Below, piece by piece: positions 4,447 to 59,194 of a stretch of 64,000 nucleotides of DNA. The stretch's first letter is position 1, and each line of letters begins with the position of its first letter. This DNA comes from Candidatus Kerfeldbacteria bacterium CG15_BIG_FIL_POST_REV_8_21_14_020_45_12 (lineage in GTDB: Bacteria; Patescibacteriota; Patescibacteriia; UBA9570; XYC2-FULL-38-9), in the NCBI GenBank assembly GCA_002781785.1, contig PFGC01000050.1, forward strand, positions 6,304-70,303, in the 5' to 3' direction. The notes beneath the pieces are model-generated. The model was not told the DNA's origin. It worked only from the letters and a program-made list of their open reading frames with translations, and did not search any database. The translations under genes were made by a program, and so were the position numbers.

Positions 4447-5436
4447 TTAAGCTGGTTCAATATGCCACTGGCCATCACGTTGTGTAATCTGGCCAGAGAC
4501 AGCGAAGCCGGCAGCCTTTTTATGGCCACCACCTCCAAATAGTGTAGCAATTTTAGAGACATCCATCAATGGGTGTGTTGTTCGCAAACTGCCTTTCACC
4601 ACGCCATTTTCACGCTCCGTCAGAACCATTATAGCCTTGGCGTCCGTTTGATCGTCTAAAGAGTTTAGGAAATTAGCTACGCCCTCAACGGCTTCTTCAT
4701 CCGCTCCGCATTCCTCGATATCTTTTAGACGCACCACGGTTGTTACCAGGCCGTCTGGTGATCTTTGTAGGCGCTCCAAGGCTCGGCCCCACAGGCGCAG
4801 GGTGGTCGCCTTCCGGTTCTGCATAGTTTTGTCTGTAATACTTTTCATGTTAACTCCCTTTAACAGCAGCTTTCCAGCTGTATCAATGGCAGATGCTGTA
4901 GTAGCTAGATTTGTAAAACAACCAGTGTCAGTAACTAGGCCGGTCATTAGGCAGGTAGCAATTTCTTTATTTAAAGCCTGAATTGAATCTAGTAAATCAT
5001 GTACTATTTCACAGGTGGAGGAGGCATCTGTAACTACGAGCTGGTGGTGACCATAACCACTATTCGTGGCGTGATGGTCAATATTAATCAATTTGTATTC
5101 ATGGTTCAGTTGGTCAATATAGTCGGCTACTCCCGCATATTTTAAATCACCCGCGTCAAGAACAATAATCAAATCAAACTTAGCTTCGTCTGGGTTCCAA
5201 TGGACGGAATCAGTTGTGACTTTATGCGACCCTGGCAGAAATTTCAAAGTCGGCGATAGGTCATCTATACAAAAACAGGTATGTGGTTTTTCAAGAGTAT
5301 CTAAATAATGAGACAGAGCTAGAGCTGCTCCCGCCGTATCGCCATCCGGCTTCTGGTGCATCACCAGCATTACATGAGAGGCTGCATCAATCTCTTTTAG
5401 AATGTCTTGGTAGATTGTTTTGAGGTCTTTATCCAT
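4447..5436 (-). CDS. nrnA: DHH/DHHA1 phosphoesterase (nanoRNase / pAp phosphatase NrnA-like)
   Basis: 329 aa; DHH motif region (NIDHHATN) and DHHA1 GGGGH motif (FGGGGHKKAAGF). Confidence 0.75.
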   Translation of the reverse strand: MDKDLKTIYQDILKEIDAASHVMLVMHQKPDGDTAGAALALSHYLDTLEKPHTCFCIDDLSPTLKFLPGSHKVTTDSVHWNPDEAKFDLIIVLDAGDLKYAGVADYIDQLNHEYKLINIDHHATNSGYGHHQLVVTDASSTCEIVHDLLDSIQALNKEIATCLMTGLVTDTGCFTNLATTASAIDTAGKLLLKGVNMKSITDKTMQNRKATTLRLWGRALERLQRSPDGLVTTVVRLKDIEECGADEEAVEGVANFLNSLDDQTDAKAIMVLTERENGVVKGSLRTTHPLMDVSKIATLFGGGGHKKAAGFAVSGQITQRDGQWHIEPA

Positions 5437-36094: not shown

Positions 36095-36360
36095 GCCTGC
36101 AGTATATCACGAGAATCAAAGCAGGCCAGTAGATGGCCCTGAGATCATGTTAGGCATTGCTCGCTGGATGTAGGAGACGTATACTAGAAAGATATAAGGG
36201 CATAATCGCTTCATATGGGACAACACACCAGATTTCTATTTATACTCCTGGCTGCCATTGTGGCCTCTGTTTTAGTTTGGATTCTCTGGGCTGCAGCTGC
36301 ACGCTAATATTATTTGGTAAATAAAAAGCCCGCCGGTATGGCGGGCTTTTAAAATCGGGC

Positions 36361-37583: not shown

Positions 37584-38162
37584 ATGAGCGATACTATTTT
37601 GACATTATTAATAGACCATCAGTTTCCGGCTATTTTTCTAGGCGCCGTTTTTCTTGGTGAAACGATCATCCTGTCTGCCGCCTATCTGGCTGGTCAGGGA
37701 ATGTGGTCAATCACCACAGTGTTTTGGTTAGCAATGCTAGGTACGGTTTTGTCAGACGTGGCCTGGTTTTTATTTGGGCAGTCAATTTTTTCAGCCACCA
37801 AGCGTTGGCGTGAAAAACAATTATCTTCAGAACGACTTTTAAAAAAACTGGAAAGCATCACCGGTAGCCGACCATTTTTAGCTCTGCTCTTTATTAAATT
37901 CCTTTACGGTACGCGCATCCTCACCATAGTTTATTTGTCAGCTAGAAAAATTAGGCCTTGGAAATTTATATTTTTTGATACGCTCGGTACTATTATATGG
38001 TTAGTCGTTATGTTGACGGTTGGCTGGTTGGCGGGGCGTGGTGTCTCGAACATAATTTCCGTCGTTGATAAAACTGAGTATGCGCTACTGGTCCTGGTTG
38101 TTATCATTATTTTGTATAGAGTCATCACTGTATGGACAGAAAAGAGACTCATCAAAAAATAA
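37584..38162 (+). CDS. DedA/TVP38-family membrane protein
   Basis: 192 aa; typical DedA re-entrant helix region. Confidence 0.8.
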   Translation: MSDTILTLLIDHQFPAIFLGAVFLGETIILSAAYLAGQGMWSITTVFWLAMLGTVLSDVAWFLFGQSIFSATKRWREKQLSSERLLKKLESITGSRPFLALLFIKFLYGTRILTIVYLSARKIRPWKFIFFDTLGTIIWLVVMLTVGWLAGRGVSNIISVVDKTEYALLVLVVIIILYRVITVWTEKRLIKK

Positions 38163-39121
38163 CAGCAGTAGTGCCCACCTATAACGAGGCTAGTCGGATA
38201 GCTGCTGTTTTACAAACTCTGTGTACGAGTCCAGATATAGCAGAGGTTATTGTGGTAGATGATGGCTCCACTGACAACACTGCAGAAGTTGTAGGCGCTT
38301 TTGATGTTCGTTATATACCAAGTCATTCCAATCAAGGTAAGGGAGCCGCAATGGAAATTGGCGTGCAGGCATCTTGTAACGCAGTAATCTTTTTCGCTGA
38401 CGCTGATGTGACCGGCTTAACGCACGACATGATTCATACTATTACGAATCCTGTTGTTAGAGGTGATGTTGATATGTTCATTGGTATGCGCAACCGAAAG
38501 ATTTACTATCTTCAAAAAATAATTATCTTTGTTCCGCTAGCTGGAGGTGAACGAGCTGTCACTAGGCGACTTTGGAATACTCTCCCAAACTATTATAAGC
38601 ACAGATTTCGTGTTGAGGTTGGTCTAAACTTTTTTGCACAATACTATGGTAATGGATTTCGGTTCACTATCATCAAAGGACTTAAGCAGGTAGTAAAAGA
38701 GAAGAAATACGGCTTGCTCAACGGATTGCTTCAGCGCTTCAAAATGGTGTTAAATATAATAACTGCTCAAATCAAGCTTCAGTTTGTTCATGTTCCAAAA
38801 TCAGCCAAGAACCGCCGTTTGCTAGCTCTAGTTTCTGTCCAGAGTCTCGTTGGCCTCGGTATTGGGATCATGTTAGTGATGGCTGCCTATTACGGTCCGG
38901 CTGACTTTATTTCCCTGATATTTTCTGAAGAGCTACAGGAGGATCCAGGTGCATTGTTCCCTAAATTACTGCTCCGCATTTCCAGGGCAACGGCTTGGGG
39001 CACACTCTTGTCCATTGGGGCATTTATCGCGATGGCTAACCTTATATCTTTTTTGTTGACTGCCAAAAATCTCTTAATGGTTTTTCGAGGGATCAAGAGC
39101 AAGATAGATTTGCAAGAGTAA
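38132..39121 (+). CDS. family-2 glycosyltransferase with C-terminal TM segments
   Basis: 329 aa; VVPTYNEASRI...VVDDGSTDNT GT-A motif. Confidence 0.8.
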   Translation: MDRKETHQKITAVVPTYNEASRIAAVLQTLCTSPDIAEVIVVDDGSTDNTAEVVGAFDVRYIPSHSNQGKGAAMEIGVQASCNAVIFFADADVTGLTHDMIHTITNPVVRGDVDMFIGMRNRKIYYLQKIIIFVPLAGGERAVTRRLWNTLPNYYKHRFRVEVGLNFFAQYYGNGFRFTIIKGLKQVVKEKKYGLLNGLLQRFKMVLNIITAQIKLQFVHVPKSAKNRRLLALVSVQSLVGLGIGIMLVMAAYYGPADFISLIFSEELQEDPGALFPKLLLRISRATAWGTLLSIGAFIAMANLISFLLTAKNLLMVFRGIKSKIDLQE

Positions 39122-41263: not shown

Positions 41264-41515
41264 AAAACTGTTAGAATAGTTATAAATAAAGCGCCCCAGT
41301 CGGGGCGTTTTATTTTGTGGGTAATTATAGCTTAGACACTGCTGTATCTCTTGCAGAAAAATTAAAAAGCCCATATCCTGTTCGAGCAGACGTTCGATCT
41401 ATACATTGGTGATTTGTCGTAATGGGCACCGGATAGAGTATTTATTACTCTATAGTATGACCATTAGGATTTCGTCCACTGTATTAGGCAGGCGCTGTTT
41501 AATACATTAGTTAAA

Positions 41516-42052
41516 TTGAGTATGTTCTGGATTTTAGTATTCGGAATTATTATTAGTTTTTTTGCGTGCTGGACAATCGGTGCCAACGATGCGGCTAACG
41601 CCATGGGAACCTCTGTTGGTTCAAAGGCACTAACCTTTAAACGCGCCGTCATTATTGGTGGTATCTTCGAGTTTTTGGGAGCTGTATTGGTGGGCGCCAA
41701 AGTAACAGGCACCATTAGTAATGGGATTATTGATCCAGCTGTGCTTGCCACTAACGCAGGGTACGCCATGCTAGCCATGCTGGCGGCGCTCTTAACTACG
41801 GGACTATTTTTACTTCTAGCTAGTAAGTGGGGAATTCCAGTTTCTACCACTCACGCTATCGTGGGCTCTATGGCTGGCGTTGGTATTGCTTTGGGTGGGC
41901 TCAGCGTTGTGCACTGGAATGTTTTAGGAAAAATTGCGGCTAGTTGGGTAGTATCACCTGTGGTTGGAGGGCTCATCGCCTTTCTGATAATGCGATTAAT
42001 TAAATCGCAAATCATTTATCGAGAAGACGCTGACTACCGCATGTATCTCTAA
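41516..42052 (+). CDS. PiT-family phosphate transporter half-protein (repeat unit A)
   Basis: 178 aa with GANDAANAMG and STTHAIVGSMAGVG signatures. It is one repeat unit of the PHO4/PiT fold. Confidence 0.7.
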   Translation: MSMFWILVFGIIISFFACWTIGANDAANAMGTSVGSKALTFKRAVIIGGIFEFLGAVLVGAKVTGTISNGIIDPAVLATNAGYAMLAMLAALLTTGLFLLLASKWGIPVSTTHAIVGSMAGVGIALGGLSVVHWNVLGKIAASWVVSPVVGGLIAFLIMRLIKSQIIYREDADYRMYL

Positions 42053-42738
42053 CCAAGTAATGCTCTCAAAAAATAGAAGATAACGCCGGCACACATGGCC
42101 ACGAAAGGAATCTGTAAAATCCAGATTGCGAAGGTTTTTCTAAGAAGTTTTTTGTCGAGTACAGCTTTTTCTTTTCTAGCTAGTCCTACTCCGATAATTG
42201 AACCAACAATAGTGTGAGTGGTTGAGATCGGCATACCTAGCTGTGATGCAAATAGAACCGTGGTAGCAGCCGCAAATTCTGCAGCAAAGCCTCGCATTGG
42301 TGTAATTTCTGTAATACCTTTACCTAGAGTTTTCATAACATTACGGCCATACATGGCAAGTCCCAGAAAAATTCCAGAGCCACCCAAGACTAGGACCCAA
42401 AAGGGTACACCCACACTAGCAGCCAAAGATCCATTTTTGTATATATTTGCCATAGCTGCCAAGGGACCAATGCCGTTAGCCACGTCATTGGCTCCGTGCG
42501 CGAAGGCCACATAGGCTGCCGTCAGTATTTGCAAGTAGCCAAAGGTTCTCAACACATTCAAACCTGGCTTCCCCTCCTTGGCTTTGTCTTTTCTCTTGAA
42601 ACTAAGTCCGGCATATACTGCAACTCCTACTAACAGGGCTAAAATAGCTGCCACAATTGAAGCCTCACCAAACGAGAAATCTAGCTTGAGGTTTTTTAGT
42701 CCCTTGAAGACAATAGATAAAAAGAGGACAAAAACCAC
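42049..42738 (-). CDS. PiT-family phosphate transporter half-protein (repeat unit B)
   Basis: 229 aa with GANDVANGIG and STTHTIVGSIIGVG signatures. It is convergent with the other half and overlaps it by 4 bp. Confidence 0.7.
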   Translation of the reverse strand: MVFVLFLSIVFKGLKNLKLDFSFGEASIVAAILALLVGVAVYAGLSFKRKDKAKEGKPGLNVLRTFGYLQILTAAYVAFAHGANDVANGIGPLAAMANIYKNGSLAASVGVPFWVLVLGGSGIFLGLAMYGRNVMKTLGKGITEITPMRGFAAEFAAATTVLFASQLGMPISTTHTIVGSIIGVGLARKEKAVLDKKLLRKTFAIWILQIPFVAMCAGVIFYFLRALLG

Positions 42739-42785
42739 AAGTGAGACCAGATACGGGGTTTAGGTAGCTGCTAATGGCCAAATAA

Positions 42786-42815
42786 AAAATGACCCTCACT
42801 TGAGGGTCATTTTTG
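42786..42815. terminator. terminator hairpin (aaaatgaccctc-actt-gagggtcattttt)
   Basis: Perfect inverted repeat with a T-run, immediately 3' of the surface-protein gene at 42823. Confidence 0.55.
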
Positions 42816-42822
42816 TGTACCT

Positions 42823-43983
42823 TTATTTCAGTTTCTTTGTGGCCGCTTTGCTGCACCCAAAGGCGTTACAGGATAGGACTGTAGCTTTTAGGCCAGATTT
42901 CTTCAATTTCTTTTTATCTTTTTTAGTAAAAGATAATTTGGTTTTAGCAACGTTGCTGTAGGTGATAATCTTTTTACCCTTTTTGTTCTTCACAAAAACT
43001 TTGTAGTAAGATGCGCCACTAACGGTGTTCCAGGACACCAGCTTCTTGCTAGCCTTTTTTACTTTAGACTTAGTTGGTTCAAGCTGATTGCTATCCACCG
43101 AGCAAGTATCTCCTTCAGAGCCGCCAACACAATCAGTTAAATCAGAATCGTCAGCGCCTACAGCAGAAGATTTAACTACCTCACCCTTTTCTGTAGTGAA
43201 GGTTAGCACAACCGGAGTCCCCCATAATCGGTGGTCAACTAGATCATAAATCTTCTTGGTAGAAGCTGTCGCAATTAGAACGAAGTTACCGTTGTAAAAC
43301 TTATTTCTAAAGTCATAGTATTCCCAAGAATCACCGGACGAAGCGTACTTCGTTGTCGAAGTAGATGTCTCCATAGTATCTCCGCTTACCTCAAAGAAGG
43401 ATAGATCAATCTTGACACTGCTGTCGTCTGCCTCTGGGTTTGTCCAGGATACCGTGCCGTCAGTGGCAATAGATAGTCCAGTTACTGGAGCAACGCTGGT
43501 GGCGTAGTATTCATTGTCGGTTACGCTTGGGTATGCTTCGTCAGAGCTAGTTGTAAAAATACCATCAACGCGAAACTGATATTCTGTAGCTGGGGTCAAT
43601 CCAGTAAAGGTGTATTGTAGCTCACCGCTACCGTCGTCATTCAAGACAAGTTGAACTTCTTCGCTTCCAACTGAAGTTTGAATGTCCTCCGTCATGTTTA
43701 CCGTAACGCCTTCAAAGTTAGAGTAGCCCATTGGTAACTTAACTGTGCAATTTGAATCATCAAACGACGGTACGAATTGCATAGTAATTGTAGTCGGTGT
43801 AGCCGCTACTGGTTCAGCGTAGATTTCTAGAGTTGAGCCAGTAGTTTCTGTGTAGGCCTCGTGGGCGCTACAGTCACTAATTGTATTTTCGTAGCCATAG
43901 GTTGCCTGAGCTGCTGAGGCACTGATCATAAATAGACCCGTGGCCACAACGGAGCTTAGAAATAGCGCTCGATGTGATTTCAT
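42823..43983 (-). CDS. secreted surface protein with C-terminal Lys-rich Fn3-like module (paralog 2 of 4)
   Basis: 386 aa; signal peptide; C-terminus KSKVKKASKKLVSWNTVSGASYYKVFVKNKKG...LSCNAFGCSKAATKK. Confidence 0.55.
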   Translation of the reverse strand: MKSHRALFLSSVVATGLFMISASAAQATYGYENTISDCSAHEAYTETTGSTLEIYAEPVAATPTTITMQFVPSFDDSNCTVKLPMGYSNFEGVTVNMTEDIQTSVGSEEVQLVLNDDGSGELQYTFTGLTPATEYQFRVDGIFTTSSDEAYPSVTDNEYYATSVAPVTGLSIATDGTVSWTNPEADDSSVKIDLSFFEVSGDTMETSTSTTKYASSGDSWEYYDFRNKFYNGNFVLIATASTKKIYDLVDHRLWGTPVVLTFTTEKGEVVKSSAVGADDSDLTDCVGGSEGDTCSVDSNQLEPTKSKVKKASKKLVSWNTVSGASYYKVFVKNKKGKKIITYSNVAKTKLSFTKKDKKKLKKSGLKATVLSCNAFGCSKAATKKLK

Positions 43984-58114: not shown

Positions 58115-59194
58115 TTATTTAGTTGTTAACTTTCTATATTTACTCCAATCTGATTTTTCACCTGTTACGTAAATTGCTCGCACTCTAACTTTATATTTCT
58201 TGGCTGATTTCAGGAATTTCTTCTTCAGCTGTTTTTTCTTGACTGTGATTCCAGTAAAGACGTGCTTCTTCTTATTACCTTTCCAAAGCTGGAGTGTGTA
58301 TCTGTCGATGTAGGTGTTGCCTGTCCATTTTACCAGGGCTCGTCTTTTTTTAATTTTCTTAACAATTGGCTGAGCTTGTCTTGTGTTAGACAACTTCCTT
58401 TTTGTGGTGGCTGTCACGGTATCCTGTGCTAGCACACAATTATCACTGCTTAGAGCTCGTACTTGAAAGAAATATTCTGTCTTAGCACTTAATCCAGAAA
58501 CAATACTGGAAGCGTCGTCAGTCATGTCTTCAGTCTCTGCTGTGTCGTTATCAATTGCTGTCTGACTTGTAGCGTAGGCTAGCGAGTAGCTACCAACTGC
58601 GCTGTCTGTGTATGTGCCTCTTTCCATATCTACGTTCGTTCCGAAGACAGTGGCGTCAACTCCGTTAAGTTCAGCGGTTTCAATAGCGGCACAGGGATCT
58701 TCCGCTATTGTGAAAGAATCCGACATGGTGTAGTCATCGTCGGTAGCCTCAAAAGCAGATGACATGCCAATTGCGTAATCGCCTTCCGTTAAAGTATTAG
58801 TTACACCAGTTAACGTAATGGTGTAACTTCCAGAAGTTAGGTCATCAGTAAGTAGCAGGCTGTAGGCATTGTCATTATCAACACTGTCTCCAGTTGCACT
58901 AACATCATCAGACGAAAGAGTTGCTACACTAAAGTCAAAAGTAGTGTCGTCGCTTGAACCGACAATTCCATCAGTCACTTCGTACATTTTTATGTTAACA
59001 CCACCGCCAGTGAAAATGCCAAAAGCAATCGGAAATGAGATAACGTATGTAGCTTCATTGCCAGTAGCTCTACTGGAGACGCTGTCAATTGTTACCGAAG
59101 TAATGTTGGAATCAGAGGCAAAGGCTGTTGTTGGTAGTAGACTTACTAGAGCCAAGCCAAGTCCTGTGATAAATATCCCCACTGTTTTTTTCAT
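58115..59194 (-). CDS. secreted surface protein with C-terminal Lys-rich Fn3-like module (paralog 4 of 4)
   Basis: 359 aa; signal peptide; C-terminus KRRALVKWTGNTYIDRYTLQLWKGNKKKHVF...YKVRVRAIYVTGEKSDWSKY. Confidence 0.55.
   Translation of the reverse strand: MKKTVGIFITGLGLALVSLLPTTAFASDSNITSVTIDSVSSRATGNEATYVISFPIAFGIFTGGGVNIKMYEVTDGIVGSSDDTTFDFSVATLSSDDVSATGDSVDNDNAYSLLLTDDLTSGSYTITLTGVTNTLTEGDYAIGMSSAFEATDDDYTMSDSFTIAEDPCAAIETAELNGVDATVFGTNVDMERGTYTDSAVGSYSLAYATSQTAIDNDTAETEDMTDDASSIVSGLSAKTEYFFQVRALSSDNCVLAQDTVTATTKRKLSNTRQAQPIVKKIKKRRALVKWTGNTYIDRYTLQLWKGNKKKHVFTGITVKKKQLKKKFLKSAKKYKVRVRAIYVTGEKSDWSKYRKLTTK

Follow-up and report, generated by a model that had tools for sequence, protein, structure and literature searches.

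Can a PiT-family phosphate transporter be made from two half-size genes that lie on opposite strands? The question is raised by a 64,000-nucleotide stretch of a Candidatus Kerfeldbacteria contig (PFGC01000050.1, assembly GCA_002781785.1), which we analyzed as a whole and call the window. The original prediction had described two convergent genes in it, one of 178 amino acids on the plus strand and one of 229 amino acids on the minus strand, as the separate halves of a PiT transporter. Both open reading frames (ORFs) are indeed present in the ORF listing:

41516..42052, plus strand: the N half, 178 amino acids, read from TTG at 41516.
42049..42738, minus strand: the C half, 229 amino acids, read from GTG at 42738.

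The likelier start of the N half is ATG at 41522, which gives a protein of 176 amino acids, the database protein P0001. The start of the C half is uncertain because annotations disagree on its length (201, 229 or 233 amino acids). The N half stops with TAA at 42050-42052 on the plus strand, and the C half stops with TAG on the minus strand, the reverse complement of 42049-42051. Since the half genes lie on opposite strands and their stops overlap, a frameshifted single gene is excluded, and the 4-bp overlap that had been predicted is real. Below we argue that a recent inversion of about 710 bp bisected an ordinary single-gene PiT, and that this probably disrupted the gene and left a young pseudogene in two pieces.

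Using the Pfam profile PHO4 (PF01384, cut-off 33.7 bits), we found that the N half covers profile positions 1-146 of 350 (E 2e-51, 175.5 bits) and the C half covers positions 162-349 of 350 (E 1.2e-58, 199.2 bits). Both scores are above the cut-off. Each half contains its own GANDxxN and P-x-STTH-x-IVG signatures, as had been proposed: IGANDAANAMG and PVSTTHAIVG in the N half, HGANDVANGIG and PISTTHTIVG in the C half. These motifs align with D22, S105-T107, D258 and S345-T347 of the Thermotoga maritima transporter TmPiT (PDB 6L85). The N half aligns with TmPiT residues 3-164 (E 3e-44), and the C half, including the orphaned codons described below, aligns with residues 176-400 (E 7e-49). In addition, each half cross-matches the other TmPiT repeat as a second domain (independent E-values 2.7e-08 and 3.3e-07). 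Judged by these alignments, the matches to PF01384 and 6L85 settle the fold, and the two halves are complementary pieces that make exactly one PiT-family protein. The likeness to the PiT/SLC20/PHO4 family (PF01384; TCDB 2.A.20; TmPiT) extends to the whole profile and to the motifs of both PD001131 repeats. However, the characterized members, the close relatives and the 80 loci listed below are single polypeptides, whereas here the two repeats and the scaffold helices are distributed over two ORFs on two strands, and transmembrane helix 4 (TM4) is severed.

How this arrangement arose can be read from the junctions. The following features were mapped by re-inverting the segment between the halves in silico under a zero-mutation model:

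42050..42759, no strand: the inverted segment, 710 bp.
Between 42049 and 42050: junction J1; between 42759 and 42760: junction J2.
42739..42759, minus strand: orphaned codons ACC CCG TAT CTG GTC TCA CTT, encoding TPYLVSL, the beginning of TM4.
42760..42765, plus strand: TTAGGT, in which the last base of the original final Tyr codon is followed by the original TAG stop; it stayed behind when the neighboring segment was inverted.

Re-inversion of 42050..42759 yields one uninterrupted ORF of 414 codons (...RMYL/TPYLVSLVVFV...RALLG/Y and stop) with no further change. In this model not a single nucleotide was gained or lost, and the inverted segment represents the 3' 57% of the original gene. The restored junctions read ...ATGTATCTC joined to ACCCCGTAT... 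and ...CTTGGTTA joined to TTAGGTAGC.... The orphaned codons lie directly upstream of the GTG of the C half and are preceded by an in-frame TAA; the residues that they encode are identical in the relative P0243. The right breakpoint is located one base ahead of the original stop codon. At the left one, the N-half protein ends with ...DADYRMYL. Because the flip creates a TAA for the N half (CTC/TAA) and a TAG for the C half (the hybrid codon GGT-TA/G) at J1, the ORFs converge with overlapping stops, and their 4-bp overlap has the same origin. An alternative model is equally parsimonious: an inversion of 42047..42765 (719 bp) restores RMYT, a stop and TPYLV, and needs one TTA>TAA change. The 719-bp model matches in length the sequence RMYTLTPYLV of a relative at locus L003. 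By this reconstruction, the breakpoints are fixed within a few bases under either model. A short inverted repeat (I11, 41951-41965 and 42733-42747) was considered as a mediator of the inversion and rejected, as it lies off the mapped breakpoints.

To find relatives, we used the reconstructed full-length protein as a query. The closest ones retrieved are contiguous proteins: P0241 (80% identity, 413 amino acids), P0242 (73%, 413 amino acids), P0243 (73%, 412 amino acids) and P0244 (71%, 410 amino acids). The L003 relative is 79% identical and is encoded in one reading frame with a single in-frame TGA. These five are 71-80% identical over both halves but un-inverted, and run uninterrupted through the site of the break (...ADxRMY-xx-TPYLV(S/A)(L/M)VxFVLFLSIVFKGLKNL...). 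P0242 is encoded on a 47-kb contig (L106) that shares with the window the order tig - AP_endonuc_2 - Inositol_P ... PHO4. Since the gene order is partly syntenic, L106 probably represents the orthologue of the window locus, with its PiT gene intact. Relative to this intact gene, the frame in the window is interrupted by an identifiable mutation, the mapped 710-bp inversion. Among the PiT loci of GTDB reference genomes, all 80 of the matches listed (at most 49% identity, from genomes other than the source genome) are single collinear genes. Searches with the N-half and C-half proteins revealed no other split relative, and the protein database contained no full-length PiT allele of ~100% identity. 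A split shared with relatives, for which the original prediction had proposed to look, was not observed in any of the five closest ones, L106 included. On this comparison, the split is a derived state that is confined to one clonal population.

We also assessed whether the arrangement is the same in other assemblies. The index listed 21 contigs with the N half, of which 13 (L001, L002, L009 and L016-L025) were checked against the window. In all 13, an opposite-strand PHO4 gene abuts the N half, and the contigs match the window at ~100% identity (across 20 kb in the long ones). They come from JGI metagenomes (3300003830, 3300004196, 3300004208, 3300005237 and 3300007985), from SPAdes and MEGAHIT assemblies in ENA, from Logan and from NCBI. 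The NCBI match is PFVE01000025.1 (GCA_002790455.1, Candidatus Kerfeldbacteria, an uncultured groundwater bacterium of the candidate phyla radiation). Because the identical junction occurs in assemblies from several samples, made with SPAdes or MEGAHIT or obtained from JGI, Logan and NCBI, a misassembly is excluded, and the claim that the split is natural holds. A query with the un-inverted junction gave no matches among JGI metagenome contigs; this result is uninformative, because a control query with the observed junction likewise gave none in that collection, which lacks this organism.

Elsewhere in the same contigs, two variable spots were noticed. At 36349-36360, a 12-bp insertion or deletion (L016) and one single nucleotide polymorphism (SNP; L018) occur at the same place. 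At 38113-38164, the NCBI contig fails to align over about 50 bp at the junction of a VTT-domain gene and a glycosyltransferase gene, and this alters the length at which each of the two is annotated. Apart from these variants, the population is clonal over 20 kb.

Where does the cut fall in the fold? In TmPiT, repeat 1 (TM1, TM2, hairpin HP1 and TM3) is followed by the scaffold helices TM4 and TM5 and by repeat 2 (TM6, TM7, HP2 and TM8); the scaffold is part of the dimer interface, and both termini are extracellular (PMC7413737). The N half corresponds to the first PD001131 repeat, that is TM1, TM2, HP1 and TM3. The C half comprises a truncated TM4, TM5 and the second PD001131 repeat (TM6, TM7, HP2 and TM8). 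The idea of one repeat per gene therefore fits the N half as it stands, and the C half only in part, as besides repeat 2 it carries the two scaffold helices, of which TM4 is truncated. Homology to TmPiT places the cut in the cytoplasmic loop between TM3 and TM4 and in the first turn of TM4; the GTG start costs TM4 about 7 residues (equivalent to TmPiT ~176-182). The conserved Trp of TM3 and of TM8 is kept. With the two repeats in opposite orientation and the N-terminus of the C fragment in the cytoplasm, the predicted topology would permit assembly.

Truncation mutants of human PiT2 give an idea of what damage in this region means. Its inter-repeat region tolerates large deletions, and PiT2 without the two scaffold-equivalent helices shows only very low transport (Bottger and Pedersen 2011; PMC3126765). 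The low transport of such mutants implies that damage to TM4 is not harmless. The likeness to our case is the location of the damage, as no part of a PiT is more permissive than its middle; in contrast to the fragments in the window, the PiT2 mutants remain single chains.

Two features are relevant to the expression of the halves:

41333..41362, plus strand: a candidate sigma-70-like promoter (TAGACA-18-AAAAAT) in the intergenic region that natively precedes the PiT gene.
42785..42814, no strand: a bidirectional intrinsic terminator hairpin with a 13-bp stem, U-tracts on both strands and 14-nt perfect arms (I7).

The promoter candidate is a consensus match only and hence weak (4 sites found versus 2.9 expected in the region). 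The scan detected no promoter-like site in the 49-nt gap between the terminator and the start of the C half; the sole candidate farther upstream is that of the N half. On the two strands, the hairpin has folding energies of -19.3 and -21.4 kcal/mol (z -4.7 and -5.0), and none of 200 shuffled sequences was as stable. It formerly terminated both the intact PiT gene and a convergent fibronectin-III-like (fn3-like) gene (42823..43983, minus strand), and it now stands 49 nt upstream of the C-half start. At L003, an analogous hairpin follows the PiT gene. Transcripts from the N-half promoter would be expected to run antisense through the whole C half up to the old terminator. The missing Shine-Dalgarno motif of the C half was considered as an argument against its translation and dropped, as such motifs are rare here (6 of 60 window ORFs).

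Other observations concern the surroundings of these signals. Between the DoxX terminator and the N-half start lies an imperfect palindrome (41417-41469; 24-nt arms, 75% complementary, 5-nt spacer), which may be an operator or an RNA structure. The products of 42823-43983 and 58115-59194, both on the minus strand, look secreted and have weak or partial fibronectin-III-type matches; the former has a very Lys-rich C-terminal tail. The 58 likely genes of the window use TAA 33 times, TAG 21 times and TGA 4 times as stops.

To see whether the halves have begun to decay, we compared them with their relatives. At sites invariant in five relatives, the window halves have the fewest unique changes (4 versus 6-20), and all 4 are conservative. 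Relative-rate counts are balanced, with 8 versus 6 changes for the N half and 8 versus 13 for the C half. For the window branch, the non-synonymous divergence (dN) amounts to 0.065-0.080, the same as for L003. Saturation of the synonymous sites means that no ratio of non-synonymous to synonymous change is obtainable for the period after the inversion. These rate tests show only mostly purifying selection through the history of the lineage, which is equally expected if the inversion is very recent. The perfect preservation of the orphaned codons and the clonality of the population suggest that it is recent, and the event may be too young for decay. One polymorphism was found within the locus:

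42233, minus-strand gene: the sole population SNP of the PiT locus, A>C on the plus strand in L009 and L023, giving M169R in the C half.

M169 immediately precedes the invariant Pro of the P-I-S-T-T-H motif, which binds phosphate and sodium. In 233 homologues, this column holds L (177), I (28), M (27) or A (1) and is never charged. M169R is a radical change, and we counted it as a sign of relaxed constraint.

How, then, should the locus be interpreted? We consider it fairly likely that the recent ~710-bp inversion disrupted the PiT gene and that the halves are a young two-piece pseudogene. An ordinary SLC20/PHO4-type gene was cut by a base-perfect flip whose left break fell in the TM3-TM4 cytoplasmic loop. 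The flip moved the 3' 57% of the gene to the opposite strand, with the native promoter retained by the N fragment. The C fragment lost the start of TM4 and now lies behind a strong terminator, with no recognized promoter and antisense to the transcription expected from the N-fragment promoter. The comparisons above demonstrate the inversion, where its breakpoints lie, that it is derived and that all contigs examined have it. From this layout we infer that the C half is poorly expressed and that function is lost; the most likely outcome would be a transporter inactivated or severely crippled, whose intact ORFs represent a pseudogene before decay. Several observations weigh against this interpretation. 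Frameshifts and internal stops are absent from both halves, all phosphate- and sodium-binding motifs are intact, and there is no excess of non-synonymous change. The break lies in a structurally permissive cytoplasmic inter-domain loop, and both ORFs end at the junction without junk tails, as expected of a split that preserves function. In this genome-reduced organism, all contigs and samples that we examined show the inverted allele and no other. Read-through of the terminator could give some C-half expression, and the promoters of the phylum are poorly known. Finally, M169R was observed only once, in a contig of low coverage. The intact ORFs and motifs, the absence of excess substitutions, the break between structural modules, the clean junction stops and the allele's exclusive presence would all suit a recent gene fission instead: both fragments would be made, adopt their native topologies and form, non-covalently, a working Na+/H+-phosphate transporter. 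Split secondary transporters can reassemble, as does lac permease expressed as two segments. Such a two-chain PiT is a possibility that we regard as doubtful. It would have to be produced from a C half that has no promoter-like site and a strong terminator 49 nt upstream, against the convergent transcription expected from the N-half promoter, with a TM4 about 7 residues shorter and with M169R circulating in the population. Moreover, no relative has a conserved split, hence there is no sign of selection maintaining it. No Pst gene and no second PHO4 gene were found among the ~60 ORFs of the 64-kb window.

A base-perfect inversion is typical of conservative site-specific recombination, which brings to mind a reversible inverton, in which a recombinase would flip the 710-bp segment on and off and the assemblies would have captured the off state. 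We hold this to be very unlikely. No inverted match of at least 5 nt exists between the two breakpoints (manual junction comparison and window repeat list), and no recombinase, invertase or transposase is encoded among the ~60 ORFs of the window. Every examined contig that spans the end of the N half is inverted, and the ~100% identical full-length allele that an on state would supply is missing from the protein database. The original prediction had also suggested a snapshot of the pre-fusion state of the family, two never-fused half genes from which the inverted-repeat PiT descended. The two half genes resemble paired or dual-topology half-transporters (reviewed in PMC3962082) only superficially, and this suggestion has to be abandoned as practically without credibility: the five closest relatives and the 80 listed loci are fused, the junctions carry the scars of an inversion, and re-inversion gives a perfect ORF. 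In addition, the cut severs a scaffold helix instead of separating two equal repeats, the missing codons lie next door, and the C gene is not one complete repeat with its own expression signals. A chimeric or mis-oriented contig is just as improbable. Short local inversions can be assembly errors, and this general expectation is all that speaks for an artefact; it is opposed by the identical junction obtained with different assemblers from several samples.

The disruptive inversion of a PiT gene, which we favor, can also be compared with known systems. The reduced genome of Nanoarchaeum equitans contains split protein genes. The likeness to them is that one ancestral gene became two ORFs after a rearrangement in a small genome. 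However, accepted functional split genes show a conserved split and expression signals for each part, whereas here the split occurs in one clonal population and the distal part is without an evident promoter. Antiparallel pairs of half-transporters and dual-topology proteins (of the SMR type, EmrE/EbrAB, and Fluc) are the textbook route to inverted-repeat transporters (PMC3962082). The PiT repeats resemble them in being homologous with opposite orientation in the membrane. Those pairs are ancestral or conserved, equal in size and usually adjacent on the same strand; in contrast, the PiT split is derived and unequal (three transmembrane helices plus a hairpin versus five plus a hairpin).

During the searches, tandem split PiTs appeared to be widespread, as many half-size matches to the N half were found and three loci (L003, L004 and L007) seemed to carry N and C genes in tandem. 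These candidates were rejected, because they turned out to be fragments, frameshifts or genes with a recoded TGA. The length of matches in the protein search seemingly does not exceed ~1.75 times that of the query (the longest were 311 amino acids for the 178-amino-acid query and 401 for the 229-amino-acid query). L004, L007 and L012-L015 are frameshifts, and the contig names of L012-L015 are of the long-read style. In the 5-Mb record of L012 (AP025283.1, GCA_024347235.1), the genes for PhoU_div, PHO4 and peptidase M20/M28 are all adjacent split pairs. They look like uncorrected long-read frameshifts, a source of false split-gene calls in protein catalogues.

The case of L003 is different. At the position of its TGA (5434-5436), six relatives invariably have Gly, and the TGA is confirmed by L010 and L011 (in the first 40 nt). 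The other complete genes on this 8-kb contig end only with TAA or TAG. This TGA is probably a reassignment of UGA to Gly, as in code 25, and not a split. The L003 PiT shares 79% identity with the PiT of a Kerfeldbacteria genome that uses code 11 and stems from the same aquifer project. Some contig ends are also shared: L005 and L006 end exactly at the last codon of the N-terminal fragment P0057, and L010 and L011 begin within 9 nt of each other, near the L003 TGA. Such breaks in the middle of a PiT gene, shared across assemblies, could reflect strain-level structural variation or shared reads.

These results matter in two ways, depending on whether the pieces work. If they are non-functional, which is more likely, the locus shows in good resolution how a small, base-perfect inversion inactivated a gene in a candidate-phyla bacterium with a reduced genome. 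It then cautions that a young pseudogene can look like a tidy pair of half-size ORFs in which every motif is intact, and the homologues that seem to be split in metagenome protein catalogues are for the most part fragments, long-read frameshifts or recoded stops. If the pieces work, we would have here the first natural two-chain PiT known to us, and the fused architecture would not be obligatory. An inverted-repeat, elevator-type transporter would then have been un-fused very recently, at the point where repeat 1 meets the scaffold. Such a protein would be a ready-made system for studying how the two repeats assemble and whether an SLC20-type transporter needs the covalent link between them.

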